Source: a virus (lineage: Duplodnaviria > Heunggongvirae > Uroviricota > Caudoviricetes). Taken from it: DNA of 29,610 bases. Within the stretch, counting starts at the first letter, position 1. Each line of letters starts with the position of its first letter. The position numbers and the translations under genes were made by a program. Positions 7,572 through 22,829 of this stretch are shown piece after piece. Under the pieces are notes generated by a model. That model was not told where the DNA came from. It saw nothing but the letters and a program-made list of their open reading frames with translations, and made no database searches. The stretch is from positions 1-29,610 of IMG/VR virus record IMGVR_UViG_2541047745_000005; one strand, written 5' to 3'.

Positions 7572-7716
7572 TATATCTGAATTTCACAGCGCATCTCACG
7601 CGCATATTAACGAGAGCCTTTCAGTAAGCGAGCCTGAGAAATGCCGTTATAGGTGGCGACCTCTCTCGGGCGGCTTTTCTGTGAGACAGGCTCACTTTCT
7701 AAAAGGTAAAGACGCA

Positions 7717-8259
7717 ATGAACTACCCAACCGTTGTTAACGATATAGATTTCAGAGACCTAATTTTTGTAGCAAACAACGATCCGGTTACAGATTCTTTT
7801 ATGGTGGCAAAAGCATTTGGAAAGCTGCCGAAGAACGTAGTTCGTGACATTGAGCGAACCATAGAAGCTTGCCCTCCTGAGTTTGATACAAAGCTCAACT
7901 TTGAGCTTTGCTATAAAAACAATGAGTTACAGAATGGTAAGCCGCAAAAATTCTACCGTCTCCGCAAGGATGGGTTGATGCTTTTGGTTATGTCCTACAC
8001 CAAAAAAGAAGCAATGCGTATCAAAATTGCTTACATCAACGCATTTAACTGGATGTACGCCATGCTTCAGGTTGGTCATCGTCAATTTGAAGAAGAGAGA
8101 AATGCCGTAATGCTGGAGTACATGAAAGAGAAGGATGTTGCCAGCATGTCAGGTCGCCTGCTTAATCGCTGGGGAAAAATTAAGAAGCCTCAGCTACTGG
8201 CGAGAATTGAACGCCTTGAACAGCACGGGCAAACCGTAATTCCCGGACTCACCAATTAA
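7717..8259 (+). CDS. Rha-family phage regulatory protein (putative)
   Basis: N-terminal region (VVNDIDFRDLIF...VAKAFGKLPKNVVRDIERTIE) resembles the Rha domain; AT-richer than neighbours; lone gene between lysis and packaging modules. Start taken at ATG 7717 (AAGG RBS) rather than GTG 7681. Confidence 0.55.
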   Translation: MNYPTVVNDIDFRDLIFVANNDPVTDSFMVAKAFGKLPKNVVRDIERTIEACPPEFDTKLNFELCYKNNELQNGKPQKFYRLRKDGLMLLVMSYTKKEAMRIKIAYINAFNWMYAMLQVGHRQFEEERNAVMLEYMKEKDVASMSGRLLNRWGKIKKPQLLARIERLEQHGQTVIPGLTN

Positions 8260-18842: not shown

Positions 18843-18991
18843 CGGCTGAATACCTCACTGATCGCTTCTTTGACTGCGCCAGCTACTGGCGCATTAATCC
18901 TTTCGAATTGCTGAATATGCCGATCAGTGAAATTCCCTTACTGGTCAGTCAGGCAAACAGGATAGAGCAGGAGAAACGCACACATGGCTGA
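18573..18991 (+). CDS. tail assembly chaperone, predicted -1 frameshift fusion product
   Basis: Slippery heptamer T_TTT_TTC at 18824-18830 in the zero frame; the -1 frame stays open to 18991, overlapping the tape-measure start. Analogous to lambda G/GT and P2 E/E+E'. Confidence 0.5.
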
Positions 18992-20816
18992 ATTTGAGCT
19001 TAAGGCGTTGATCACCGGTGTCGACAGGCTTTCTCCCGCGCTGTCGAAAATGCAAAAGAAAATCCGGGGATTTAAACGCCAGGCGGAAGAAGCGTCACAG
19101 GGTGGGCTGGCGCTTGGGGGCGGACTGGCAGCGGGGCTGACGCTTTCCCTGAAATCTTATGCCGATCAGGAAAACGCCGCTACCGGGCTGAAAGTCGCCA
19201 TGATGGATGCGAACGGTGAGGTTGGAAAGAGCTTTCAGGACATCAATAAACTGGCTATTGGCCTGGGTAACCAGCTACCCGGTACAACGGCTGATTTCCA
19301 GAACATGATGCAGATGCTGGTGCGTCAGGGGATCCCGGCAGAAAACATTCTGGGTGGTGTGGGTAAAGCGACAGCTTATCTTGCGGTACAACTGAAAAAA
19401 ACACCGGAAGCGGCTGCTGAGTTTGCTGCAAAGATGCAGGATGCTACCGGAACGGCGTCAGAAGACATGATGGGGCTGTTCGACACTATCCAGAAGGCGT
19501 TTTATCTGGGCGTTGACGATACCAACATGTTGTCCTTCTTCACTAAAACCAGTTCTGTTCTGAAGATGGTGAACAAGGATGGTCTTCAGGCTGCACAGAG
19601 CCTTGCCCCCATCAGCGTCATGATGGATCAGATGGGGATGAACGGGGAGTCGGCAGGTAATGCTCTGCGAAAAGTTATCCAGTCCGGATTAAGTGTTAAG
19701 AAAATCAGGGACGTCAATAAAGTCATGGCCCGCCAGAAACTCGGGGTACAGCTCGATTTTACTGACGGCAAAGGAAGTTTTGGCGGTCTTGATAACATGT
19801 TTAAGCAACTGGCAAAGTTGCGAAAACTGACTGACGTTAAGCGAACTAATGTACTTAAGGCAATATTTGGTGATGATGCCGAAACCATTCAGGTGGTCAA
19901 TGCGCTGATCGATAAAGGAAAGGATGGTTACGATCAGATCCAGCAGAAGATGAATAAACAGGCCAGCCTGAATAAACGTGTTCAGGCACAGCTTGGTACG
20001 TTGTCCAACCTGTGGGAGGCAATGACGGGGACCGCAACTAACGGCCTTGCAGCTATTGGCGGCGCATTTTCTGGTGACGCTAAAAATATCACGCAATGGC
20101 TGGGGGAGTTGGGGGAGAAATTCACGAAGTTTGCGGATCAAAATCCCCGGGTTATTCGCGGCGTCGTCGGGCTTGCTGCCGGTCTTGCGATTCTGAAACT
20201 GGGATTGATGGGCGTGGGCAGTGCCATCAGTATCGTCAGCAGGATCATGTCGATGACGCCGATTGGCATGATTGCGACGGCGATTGCCTTGGCTGCGGGA
20301 TTAATTATCACTAACTGGGATGTTGTTGGACCTTATTTCAAGAAGCTCTGGGAAACCATTGGTCCTTATTTTGAGGTTGGCTGGGAACTCCTTAAGAAAG
20401 TTTTTGCCTGGTCGCCGCTGGGGATGGTGATCAATAACTGGGGACCGGTTGTTAAGTGGTTTCAGGATATGTGGGACAAGCTGAAGCCAATTATTGAGTG
20501 GTTTACTGACAGTTCCGGTGACACGGTCGATGCCATTAACTCTGCGCAGTGGGGCGCAGGTGCCTATGATGCTTATGGGACGGGAATACCGGCGCGGGGA
20601 TACACACCTTATCAGGCGGTTGATCCGGCTCAGTCAAACAACGCCTCCGGTGCCACAGGCCCGAATCCCTTCATGATTAACAAAGCTTCTGCGCCAAAAG
20701 TTGATGGTGAGATCAAGGTATCTTTTGTGAATATGCCACCAGGTATGCGGGTTATGGAAACGCGATCCAGCGGTATTGATGTCAGCCATGATGTTGGCTA
20801 TACGCGGTTCAGGTAG
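18984..20816 (+). CDS. tail tape measure protein
   Basis: 610 aa; predicted helical with hydrophobic, Gly-rich central segment (VVGLAAGLAILKLGLMGVGSAISIV...); position after the chaperone. Confidence 0.85.
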   Translation: MAEFELKALITGVDRLSPALSKMQKKIRGFKRQAEEASQGGLALGGGLAAGLTLSLKSYADQENAATGLKVAMMDANGEVGKSFQDINKLAIGLGNQLPGTTADFQNMMQMLVRQGIPAENILGGVGKATAYLAVQLKKTPEAAAEFAAKMQDATGTASEDMMGLFDTIQKAFYLGVDDTNMLSFFTKTSSVLKMVNKDGLQAAQSLAPISVMMDQMGMNGESAGNALRKVIQSGLSVKKIRDVNKVMARQKLGVQLDFTDGKGSFGGLDNMFKQLAKLRKLTDVKRTNVLKAIFGDDAETIQVVNALIDKGKDGYDQIQQKMNKQASLNKRVQAQLGTLSNLWEAMTGTATNGLAAIGGAFSGDAKNITQWLGELGEKFTKFADQNPRVIRGVVGLAAGLAILKLGLMGVGSAISIVSRIMSMTPIGMIATAIALAAGLIITNWDVVGPYFKKLWETIGPYFEVGWELLKKVFAWSPLGMVINNWGPVVKWFQDMWDKLKPIIEWFTDSSGDTVDAINSAQWGAGAYDAYGTGIPARGYTPYQAVDPAQSNNASGATGPNPFMINKASAPKVDGEIKVSFVNMPPGMRVMETRSSGIDVSHDVGYTRFR

Positions 20817-20857
20817 TGTACAAAATGATTAATGTGTTTTTGTCTGGCATAATTTGG

Positions 20858-20885
20858 GTTTTCAGCTTTAAGTAGTTAATATAAT
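20858..20885 (+). promoter_or_regulatory. candidate promoter for the cargo gene (-10 TATAAT at 20880-20885, weak -35)
   Basis: Perfect TATAAT about 30 nt upstream of ATG 20916 in an AT-rich intergenic stretch; -35 element not convincing. Confidence 0.3.
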
Positions 20886-20915
20886 CATTCCTTACAAATG
20901 ATTGAAGGGATGATT

Positions 20916-21410
20916 ATGCGTATCTTTGTGTTTTTTATATCTGCACTTTTATCTTTTAACTTGGCAGCGGAAGAGTGTAAGTTCAGCTTTAATGAGTCAG
21001 AATTAATCTCTTCTATAGGTATTGCACCAGTTAAGCAAGAGATAGTAAAGGATGAAGGAATAACTAAGCGTCAATATGAATTCAGGAGAGAATTGTCTTT
21101 TGAAGAGATGCTTAGTGATGATGCTGATGAAAAATATGAGCCGCAGTTTTATATATCTGTTTATAATCCATCATGTCCACAAAAGGTTATTATTTGGTTT
21201 TTCAAGGACAATAAAAACACACAAACTTTAAGTAATGAGGTCCTTGCTGGTAGAGCATTCAAGTATTTAACTGGTGTTAATGAAAGTATTTTTGAAAATA
21301 AAATGAAAAAGTTTTCAAAGGTACAGTCATTTGAGTCCTTTGATGAAAGGACGGACTCTAAATTTATAAAGAGTAGTAATGTTTATTCCATTGATGTTCA
21401 ACTCAGATAG
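20916..21410 (+). CDS. secreted/periplasmic protein of unknown function (moron cargo) with N-terminal signal peptide
   Basis: MRIFVFFISALLSFNLAAEE...: basic n-region, hydrophobic core, AXA-like site (LAA) before acidic residues; GAAGGGA RBS 7 nt upstream. About one-third G+C by manual count of sample lines versus roughly 55-60% in flanking tail genes. An in-frame ATG at 20898 is an alternative start. Confidence 0.6.
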   Translation: MRIFVFFISALLSFNLAAEECKFSFNESELISSIGIAPVKQEIVKDEGITKRQYEFRRELSFEEMLSDDADEKYEPQFYISVYNPSCPQKVIIWFFKDNKNTQTLSNEVLAGRAFKYLTGVNESIFENKMKKFSKVQSFESFDERTDSKFIKSSNVYSIDVQLR

Positions 21411-21428
21411 TAATTGAAAATATTAGAA

Positions 21429-21486
21429 CCCCGCCACATCTTCTGCGATGTAAATAACTGACAAAGCAGATTTGGCGGGTTTTTTG
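21429..21486 (+). terminator. intrinsic terminator after the cargo gene
   Basis: CCCGCCA (21430-21436) pairs with TGGCGGG (21473-21479), followed by TTTTTTG; the intervening sequence has internal small hairpins. Confidence 0.5.
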
Positions 21487-21500
21487 TATCCGGAGTTTAT

Positions 21501-22829
21501 ATGACGTGGAAAGGCAGGCTTCAGGATGCGTCATTTCGCGGCGTACCGTTTAAGGTTGAAGAAGAAAGTGCGGGAACCGGTCGCCGTGTGGAAACACATG
21601 AATACCCGAACCGCGACAAGCCCTATACCGAAGATCTGGGAAAAGTCACTTTCCGCCCGTCCATCACAGCTTATGTGGTGGGAGATGACTGCTTTGACCA
21701 GCGCGATCGCCTGATTGACGCGCTGAATAAACCCGGTCCCGGCACGCTTGTCCACCCGACATATGGTGAGCTGAAAGTCTGTGTTGACGGGGAAGTTCGG
21801 GTCAGCACATCGAAAAGTGAAGGGCGTATTGTCCGCTTTGACCTGAAGTTTGTCGAAGCAGGAGAACTCTCTTACCCCACATCAGGTGCGGCGACGGCGC
21901 AGACGCTGATGTCATCCTGTTCTGCACTGGATGACTGCATCAGTGACAGCTTCAGCGGTTTCAGTATCGATGGTGTGGCGGATTTCGTGCAGAACGACGT
22001 TATCGGTAATGCCAGCATAATGCTGGGGTATGTTTCTGATGCGATGAAAGTGGTGGATTCTGCCGTATCGGATGCCGCCAGGCTGTTGCAGGGGGATATC
22101 TCGGTACTTCTGCCGCCGCCATCGTCAGGCAAAAATTTCGTTGAGCAGGTGCAGAAAATGTGGCGTACCGGGAAACGCCTTTATGGTAACGCCAGCGACC
22201 TGGTCACCATGATCAAAACGCTTTCCGGTGTCAGCCTCGGCAGCGATCTGCAACCGCGCGGCGTCTGGAAAACGGACAGTAAAACCACCGCCACGGCGAC
22301 GCAGCAGCGTAACGTGGTTGCCAGCACCCTTCGTACGACCGCAATCAGCGAAGCGGCGTATGCCGTCACACGATTGCCTGCGCCCACAACTTCCGCGGTG
22401 ATGCAGAATGCCACAGTAGGGCAGTCAACAACACCCGCGCAGAGCACCGGCTGGCCTTCTGTCACGCATCCGGCACTGAACAATGCACCGGCGGTGAAAA
22501 ACACGGTTGACCTGCCAACGTGGGAAGAACTGACCGACATTCGCGACACACTGAATACGGCAATTGATAAGGAGTTGTCCCGTACAACCAGTGATGCGCT
22601 GTTTCTGGCGCTGCGCCGGGTGAAAGCAGATCTGAATGCGGATATCAACACGCGCCTTGAACAGTCTGCACGGATCATTCAGCGCACGCCGGATGAGGTT
22701 TTACCCGCGCTGGTGCTGGCGGCGACCTGGTTTGATAACGCGGCGCGTGACGCGGACATTATCCGGCGTAATGCCATTACACATCCCGGCTTTGTGCCGG
22801 TGATCCCTCTGAAGGTGCCAGTGCAATGA
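21501..22829 (+). CDS. DNA circularization protein N-like (Mu gpN family) tail/baseplate protein
   Basis: N-terminal W.GRLQDASFRGVPFKVEEE motif characteristic of the Mu N family; 442 aa; GGAG RBS. Confidence 0.75.
   Translation: MTWKGRLQDASFRGVPFKVEEESAGTGRRVETHEYPNRDKPYTEDLGKVTFRPSITAYVVGDDCFDQRDRLIDALNKPGPGTLVHPTYGELKVCVDGEVRVSTSKSEGRIVRFDLKFVEAGELSYPTSGAATAQTLMSSCSALDDCISDSFSGFSIDGVADFVQNDVIGNASIMLGYVSDAMKVVDSAVSDAARLLQGDISVLLPPPSSGKNFVEQVQKMWRTGKRLYGNASDLVTMIKTLSGVSLGSDLQPRGVWKTDSKTTATATQQRNVVASTLRTTAISEAAYAVTRLPAPTTSAVMQNATVGQSTTPAQSTGWPSVTHPALNNAPAVKNTVDLPTWEELTDIRDTLNTAIDKELSRTTSDALFLALRRVKADLNADINTRLEQSARIIQRTPDEVLPALVLAATWFDNAARDADIIRRNAITHPGFVPVIPLKVPVQ

Follow-up and report, generated by a model that had tools for sequence, protein, structure and literature searches.

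What is a sharply AT-rich island of DNA doing between two tail genes of an Escherichia coli prophage, and does the single gene that it carries serve the phage tail or some other function? The island occupies positions 20817-21500 (684 nt) of IMG/VR record IMGVR_UViG_2541047745_000005, the full 29,610-nt stretch of which was analyzed and is called the window here. The window represents an E. coli prophage of the lambdoid group whose contractile, Mu-like tail is of the SfV type. Its gene content includes a Q antiterminator, a holin, Rz, a terminase, an HK97-type head, and tail genes that resemble those for Mu gp39-gp48, and the DNA around the island is 94-97% identical to that of phages SKA5, SfV, SfI, and SfII. 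A preliminary description regarded the island as a moron, horizontally acquired cargo in which a promoter and an intrinsic terminator of its own surround the gene for an exported protein of 165 amino acids. The best-supported explanation of the results presented here is that the island holds an optional, selected accessory gene (the cargo gene) that has long resided in a terminator-bounded slot of the tail operon.

The tape-measure gene, which ends with TAG at 20814-20816 and whose product is 98% identical to its SfII and SKA5 counterparts, delimits the slot on the left. On the right, the gene for a Mu gp43/N-like DNA-circulation protein, 99% identical to those of SfII, SfIV, and SKA5, starts with ATG at 21501 and is preceded by the ribosome-binding site (RBS) GGAG at 21492-21495. 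GC content falls to 31-33% in 300-nt windows within 20850-21449, compared with 50-55% just upstream and 52-61% downstream. The bin that spans 21001-21500 has the lowest GC content (32.6%) of the 29.6-kb window, and the runner-up reaches 40.2%. These values confirm the AT-rich island of ~680 bp that had been reported between the tape-measure and baseplate genes; its neighbors are indeed richer in GC, at ~50-58% rather than the 55-60% first given. Both strands considered, the island contains a single open reading frame (ORF) of at least 60 amino acids. The ORF caller lists it as 20898-21410, and the start that is shared by homologs and picked by PGAP is the ATG at 20916 (MRIFVFF...). The encoded protein contains 164 amino acids; the earlier figure of 165 had counted the stop codon. 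Over its full length (residues 1-164 on profile positions 1-164), the protein matches phrog_8976, a family of unknown function in PHROGs v4, with an E value of 6.7e-104. An Rfam search of the island and its surroundings matched no RNA family, and no flanking direct repeats or target-site duplication that would indicate a transposon or integron mechanism were found around the island.

Comparison of related prophages revealed that the cassette is optional at this exact junction. The junction region is matched in part or whole by 1,096 of 5,426 complete E. coli genomes, and the cassette is present in 84 of these. Phage SKA5 carries the cassette, and SfV, SfI, SfII, and SfIV are precisely without it, their tail genes being joined by 24-63 nt. 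Among the 77 closest IMG/VR loci, 47 are empty, 16 contain the cargo gene, 13 encode an unrelated, membrane-anchored protein of 176 amino acids, and 1 encodes a bacterial PH-domain protein. The gene is not kept in all Mu-like tail modules, which agrees with its original designation as cargo rather than as a conserved tail gene. An ordinary structural or assembly gene of the tail module would share the fixed position of the cargo gene in the operon and its co-divergence with the tape-measure gene (see below), but we consider this explanation highly improbable. The four Sf phages, which are infectious, lack the gene, as do most relatives; unrelated cargos take its place elsewhere; a conserved, predicted cleavable export signal is incompatible with tail assembly in the cytoplasm; and the annotation of SKA5 puts Mup42 and Mup43 on either side of the cargo. 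In the established gene order of Mu itself, there is presumably no gene at the position that matches the slot.

How long has the cargo gene occupied this position? In every fetched locus that spans both flanks, the homolog separates the tape-measure gene from the DNA-circulation gene and is read in the direction of the late operon, and no member of the family was seen outside this slot in chromosomes or plasmids. Divergence of the cargo follows that of its neighbors. Flank identities of 98% (tape measure) and 99% (DNA circulation) accompany a cargo identity to the window protein of 93-99%; the corresponding values are about 77% and 70% with 53-62%, and about 58% and 55% with 35-46%. Across 23 loci, pairwise identities of the cargo correlate with those of the tape-measure protein (rho 0.76) and the DNA-circulation protein (rho 0.67), and the latter two correlate with each other (rho 0.63); the identity pairs are not independent, and P values of these correlations carry no meaning. 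The cargo gene is AT-rich in all clades, with a GC content of 32-42% versus 47-58% in the flanks of the 12 homolog loci measured. Pairwise dN/dS of the gene ranges from 0.04 to 0.24 across several divergence depths, and the gene is under purifying selection. Because its position is fixed and its divergence tracks both tail genes, the cargo gene is a long-standing occupant of this lineage of tail modules, from which it has often been lost or replaced. It is not a recent one-off insertion. The designation as a moron therefore stands insofar as the gene is optional and compositionally foreign, and falls insofar as it implied recent arrival. Indeed, of the properties by which morons have been recognized (Juhala et al. 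2000; Cumby et al. 2012), the gene exhibits absence from close relatives and a differing base composition; recent horizontal acquisition does not apply, as the cargo co-diverges with its flanks over 35-99% identity.

The family is small. It comprises 11 clusters among 5.8 billion proteins, and an exhaustive search of 1.84 billion representatives with a hidden Markov model (HMM) returned 13 matches, one of which, to the eukaryotic repeat protein P0024 of 1766 amino acids, was spurious and was discarded as repeat-inflated. Only two isolated phages, SKA5 and Pantoea phage AH07, contain the gene. When a narrower alignment was used as the query, the gene was found in 2 of 185,579 species-representative genomes, those of Kluyvera and Atlantibacter.

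To what extent is the slot itself a feature of these phages? Our survey drew on 224 fetched loci, among which 120 different junction sequences occur, and is biased, because 59 of these loci were retrieved by searching with the cargo. Of the 224 junctions, 70 are empty, and the others hold ~15 cargo families that are unrelated to one another. An N-terminal signal peptide, lipobox, or membrane anchor is present in at least 12 families, including that of the window (binomial P ~1e-4 against a generous background of 30%). Pfam domains are nearly absent among the slot cargos; the exceptions are a bPH_1 protein, a ClpP-like gene, a pair that contains HIRAN, and an OB-fold (PF12869) protein, whose match in PHROGs, phrog_8545, is annotated as 'superinfection exclusion Sie-like'. 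Alignment of the window family with three other slot cargos by hhalign detected no relation. The DNA-circulation genes of L159, L160, L163, and other loci are 94-99% identical to that of L158, whereas the C-termini of their tape-measure proteins are only ~30% identical. The tape-measure C-terminus and the DNA-circulation gene thus recombine independently, which makes the junction a module boundary within the tail. At one locus from a distant relative (L060, about 5500-6200, minus strand), an extra ClpP-like gene of 183 amino acids (PF00574, E 3e-11) was observed beside the phrog_8976 homolog.

The right end of the island contains a hairpin with the characteristics of an intrinsic terminator. 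Its outer stem (21430-21436/21473-21479) encloses an inner stem (21442-21446/21466-21470) and is followed by a T-run (21480-21485). The predicted fold has an energy of -24.2 kcal/mol (z -2.5), and 4 of 200 shuffles folded as well. The preliminary description had correctly noted a hairpin and T-run here and had assigned them to the cassette; they appear to belong instead to the junction. Homologous hairpins are present in 38 distinct junction sequences, at empty sites, behind phrog_8976 cargo, and behind other cargos alike. Conservation at empty junctions and behind other cargos argues that the terminator is owned by the slot and not by the cassette. All versions of the junction end in the order GC hairpin, T-run, and then AT.T.CGGAG...ATG of the DNA-circulation gene, except for L013, which contains the OB-fold cargo on the minus strand, and L060, in which the hairpin is weak. 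The usual hairpin reads CCCGC-TTCG-GCGGG, and the version in the window differs by a loop expansion of ~36 nt (21437-21472) that forms its own 5-bp inner stem and is common to all close E. coli copies of the cassette. Changes in the stem compensate one another, as in CCCGC/GCGGG to CCCAC/GTGGG. Over 16 diverse sequences, 98.9% of cells are paired; one stem pair is altered on both sides (G-C to A-U) in 6 of the 16, and no shuffle attained the observed covariation score. Judged from these alignments, the putative terminator is a conserved feature of the junction that is kept by compensatory changes.

Late transcription in this phage, which carries a Q gene, is Q-antiterminated, as established for lambda. 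It is therefore expected that late transcripts pass the junction terminator in the lytic cycle and that any other transcript is stopped there before it enters the baseplate genes. Such behavior would explain why inserted genes are tolerated at this junction. One locus (L058) presents a further variation, a degenerate second copy of the terminator (atatccgctacggaagggtttttatgtaccg; 4868-4915) upstream of the cargo, which is thereby flanked by two terminator-like elements. This second copy hints at exchange of cassettes by recombination at or near the hairpin.

Does the cassette have a promoter of its own, as first proposed? The TATAAT at 20880-20885 and the RBS (GAAGGGA, 20904-20910) are located where they had been reported. 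A strict consensus scan of the leader found no sigma-70 site. A relaxed scan returned TTTTCA-15 nt-TATAAT (20880) and an extended -10 element, TGgCATAAT (20845-20853), without a good -35 element, and a lone TATAAT within ~100 nt of 33%-GC DNA is not significant. A promoter belonging to the cassette is plausible, with the -10-like elements as candidates for it. By eye, the first ~20 nt of the leader (around 20822-20836) resemble the start of the spacer at the empty SfII junction; MAFFT scattered the SfII spacer in the alignment.

The leader has a second feature, a 17-bp hairpin whose 5' arm begins with the TATAAT and whose 3' arm comprises the RBS and AUG of the cargo gene. RNA that starts at 20860 is predicted to form this hairpin (-19.8 kcal/mol, z -3.2; none of 200 shuffles folded as well), as is RNA that reads through from the tape-measure gene. 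RNA that begins at ~20892, the start expected from the TATAAT, is predicted to be unstructured (-5.4 kcal/mol) with its RBS not buried. Two further clades, L047/L052 and L058/L059, have RBS-burying hairpins of other sequence, as L004 does in part; no such hairpin was present in L008/L056 or in two other cargos examined. Covariation in the leader hairpin is weak, with only one-sided or G-U changes and no double compensatory ones within the one clade. According to these folding models, the hairpin could gate translation by the origin of the transcript or could act as an RNA thermometer.

The spacing of the genes in more distant clades bears on when the cargo is made. Only 10-17 nt, which hold an RBS and leave no space for a promoter, separate the tape-measure stop codon from the cargo start in Pantoea phage AH07 and in the L060/L062/L064 clades, and the cargo gene must therefore be read with the late operon there. 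A late-cycle factor of benefit to the phage would fit this arrangement, as well as the constant orientation of the gene. Such a protein would be made together with tail proteins and exported before lysis, and might mask receptors or debris in the manner of T5 Llp or tune the envelope or lysis. In the E. coli clade, however, the leader hairpin would block translation of read-through RNA, and most close relatives can do without the gene. We regard a late-cycle role as unlikely.

We next consider the protein itself. Every public copy is named 'hypothetical protein'. Apart from phrog_8976, the PHROGs search returned a partial, non-significant match to phrog_30947 (E 0.29), which is also of unknown function. 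Searches of Pfam profiles (E up to 10) and NCBIfam profiles matched no family, and a search of PADLOC gave 0 matches at E up to 10. The sole match in a sequence search of the Protein Data Bank (PDB) had an E value of 0.023 and was discarded as chance. The initial view of the protein as a candidate for an undescribed function thus remains accurate, and no convincing structural match has been added to it.

The N-terminus has the layout of a Sec signal peptide, which bears out the earlier prediction. This assignment derives from a heuristic check of N-terminal layout (R2, an uncharged run, and the residues at -3/-1). All 16 of the homologs checked contain R2, a 16-residue uncharged run with a mean Kyte-Doolittle (KD) value of 1.7-3.0, and then [V/I/A/S/T]-x-A before [E/D][E/Q]C. 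The lipobox of lipoproteins processed by signal peptidase II (SPase II), [LVI][ASTVI][GAS]C, is not present; E-E or E-Q precedes the Cys in the window protein and most homologs. We infer from this layout that the product is exported to the periplasm. Cys87 is invariant among homologs and Cys21 is nearly so. Other conserved positions are aromatic or structural, and no conserved, catalytic-looking residues were seen in the homolog alignments.

The AlphaFold2 model of the protein adopts an alpha+beta architecture with a predicted local distance difference test (pLDDT) value of 87.9 and a predicted template modeling score (pTM) of 0.79; residues 1-20 are of low confidence and disordered. The mature protein of ~146 amino acids would be a soluble binding domain located in the periplasm, with a probable disulfide between Cys21 and Cys87. 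Foldseek comparison of the model with the PDB yielded nothing below E 0.1. DcrB was considered as a structural relative and discarded (Foldseek probability 0.08-0.10). A single match in BFVD, with a TM score of 0.59 at 15% identity, was to a metagenomic protein with an implausible name and was unconvincing. The periplasmic lysozyme inhibitors Ivy and MliC/PliC gave no Pfam match at E up to 10, and no such fold occurred among the PDB structure matches. The predicted fold is apparently new.

What might a small periplasmic protein encoded at this site accomplish? We tentatively favor superinfection exclusion at the level of the envelope, a proposal by analogy to which we assign somewhat less than an even chance. 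It is favored because of the resemblance to the HK97 gp15 moron, the bias of the slot toward envelope proteins, the presence of a Sie-like alternative cargo, and the non-enzymatic appearance of the protein. As summarized in PMC3594210, HK97 gp15 is an envelope exclusion protein encoded by a moron beside the tape-measure gene, and it excludes superinfecting phages at DNA entry in a tail-dependent manner (Juhala et al. 2000; Cumby et al. 2012). Both genes are optional, compositionally distinct, single-gene inserts that adjoin the tape-measure gene in a lambdoid tail operon and are followed by a terminator, and both products go to the cell envelope, in the present case as predicted from sequence. 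The two differ in that gp15 is encoded upstream of the tape measure, between the chaperone and tape-measure genes, whereas the cargo gene is downstream. In addition, gp15 is a small inner-membrane protein related to YebO, whereas the cargo product is a predicted soluble periplasmic domain of 146 amino acids, and the two proteins have no sequence relation.

Other small, phage-encoded proteins that are exported or lipid-anchored provide further parallels. The targets of T4 Sp/Imm, TP-J34 Ltp, phi80/N15 Cor, and T5 Llp lie outside the cytoplasm and are the receptor or, in the arriving phage, the tail tip or tape measure. They differ from the cargo protein in that there is no detectable homology by sequence (PHROGs, PADLOC, and Pfam) or by fold; the window protein lacks a lipobox, and none of the others is encoded at the tape-measure/DNA-circulation junction.

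In the model that we propose, the cargo protein would be exported by the Sec pathway, be cleaved after Ala18, and adopt its fold in the periplasm, a small alpha+beta domain without enzymatic activity and with a probable Cys21-Cys87 disulfide. In the lysogen, a weak -10-type promoter would drive a cargo transcript that the junction terminator would end ahead of the baseplate genes. During lytic growth, Q-modified polymerase would pass the terminator, and the leader hairpin would mask the RBS and start codon in the read-through RNA, such that the protein would be made mainly from its own transcript. In the weakest step of the model, the periplasmic protein would bind the tail tip or tape measure of an incoming phage or a host envelope factor of its entry pathway. 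Superinfecting phages would thereby be excluded after adsorption, as they are by HK97 gp15, T4 Sp/Imm, and TP-J34 Ltp.

Several observations weigh against exclusion by this mechanism. The candidate promoter is without a good -35 element and was missed by the strict scan. The 10-17 nt packing of the distant clades marks a late-operon gene and fits a role in the lytic cycle as well as one in the lysogen. Searches of PHROGs, PADLOC, PDB, and BFVD found no similarity in sequence or fold to known exclusion or defense proteins, and the 'Sie-like' label of the OB-fold cargo is a database annotation only. Some clades lack the leader hairpin, which also shows no double compensatory changes. Finally, an obligatory pairing of cargo and tape measure was considered and is weakened by the finding that, within the E. 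coli clade, one and the same tape-measure protein accompanies different cargos.

The same predicted properties are compatible with a protein that acts on the host rather than on other phages. A lysogenic-conversion or host-fitness factor would be a periplasmic protein that alters the envelope (stress or serum resistance, adhesion, or defense against host factors), as lambda Bor, Lom, and Gifsy-2 SodCI do in their conversion or fitness roles. The cargo gene has the moron-like layout of such factors, being AT-rich, optional, and predicted to encode an exported, non-enzymatic product, and it is present in human and animal isolates of E. coli, Shigella, and Salmonella. Morons of the tail region that have roles of this kind are described in PMC3594210. 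In opposition, the family is confined to one phage slot among the data examined, the cargo co-diverges with tail genes, and no similarity to known virulence or envelope families was detected. We consider a conversion role unlikely.

Accessory-gene hot spots of temperate phages are represented by the P2/P4 defense hot spots (Rousset et al. 2022, cited in PMC10884400). Like these, the slot is a fixed intergenic site between conserved genes at which unrelated cargos swap among close relatives. Unlike these, it lies inside a tail operon, is bounded by a conserved terminator, and holds mainly small exported proteins without known domains rather than cytoplasmic defense systems. In a broader form of the exclusion proposal, which we find rather doubtful, the slot would be a terminator-insulated hot spot of envelope-level phage exclusion in the tail operon. 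The phrog_8976 family would be its most widespread occupant, a new entry-blocking periplasmic fold whose translation is gated by transcript origin, the arm that pairs with the RBS containing the -10 element of the promoter.

Envelope-protein morons are already known as a kind, and the family is catalogued as phrog_8976; the catalog entry gives no function, localization, or context, and the present analysis supplies the context and a predicted localization. Literature searches found no description of the phrog_8976 family or of the tape-measure/DNA-circulation slot. These searches likewise turned up no description of the fixed slot, the co-divergence of cargo and tail genes, the slot-owned terminator, the breadth of exported cargos, the apparently new fold, or the RBS-hiding leader. 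If periplasmic exclusion is correct, the protein would bring a new fold and family to envelope-level exclusion, of which few proteins are yet understood, and the slot would offer a dozen further candidates at a single genomic address, in prophages of about one-fifth of complete E. coli genomes. The junction terminator together with the RBS-hiding leader would be a model for expression in the lysogen from inside a late operon without activation of lethal neighbors. Were none of these explanations to hold, the gene would be an ordinary moron whose function is unassigned. The coordinates of the features described here are collected in Table 1.

Table 1 Features of the window and locations of other slot cargos (positions in loci with L numbers refer to those loci; CDS, coding sequence).
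Feature	Position	Strand	Evidence
Q antiterminator gene	4631-5425		PF03589
Tail tape-measure protein gene, 610 amino acids; left border of cargo slot	18984-20816	+	PF10145 PhageMin_Tail, E 7e-27
AT-rich leader with candidate promoter elements	20817-20915	+	Sequence, relaxed promoter scan
17-bp leader hairpin, UAUAAUCAUUCCUU / AAGGGAUGAUUAUG	20880-20918	+	Inverted repeat, RNA folding
Cargo CDS, 164 amino acids plus stop, family phrog_8976	20916-21410	+	Translation, PHROGs match, homolog alignments
Predicted Sec signal peptide, codons 1-18	20916-20969	+	n-h-c layout in homologs
Intrinsic-terminator-like hairpin and T-run	21430-21485	+	RNA fold, homologous hairpins at other junctions
Mu gp43/N-like DNA-circulation (baseplate) gene; right border of slot	21501-22829	+	PF07157 DNA_circ_N, E 3e-34
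Other slot cargo, L011	1009-1539		
Other slot cargo, L012	1008-1685		
Other slot cargo, L013	949-1395	-	
Other slot cargo, L137	2558-2935		
Further loci with other slot cargos: L160, L167, L173, L175, L190, L192, L235			

Three other regions of the window attracted our attention. In lambdoid phages, the region between the Q and holin genes is the place where cargo close to the late promoter is classically found. In the window, 5500-6000 of this region has a GC content of 40% and contains an ORF of 80 amino acids (5714-5956) without a Pfam match. A gene for a Rha/ORF11CD3-domain regulator (7681-8259; GC ~44-46%) lies between the lysis and HNH/terminase genes and is likely accessory. Downstream of the tail operon's slot, a 20-nt inverted repeat (AAACCTTGGTTTGGGAGAAG; 90% complementary) at 26786-26805 and 28576-28595 brackets ~1.8 kb of DNA that contains the 3' part of a tail-fiber gene and opposed ORFs for tail-fiber assembly. 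A serine invertase gene (28662-29225; PF00239 and HTH_7) adjoins the bracketed stretch, which looks like an invertible host-range segment of the Gin/Cin type.

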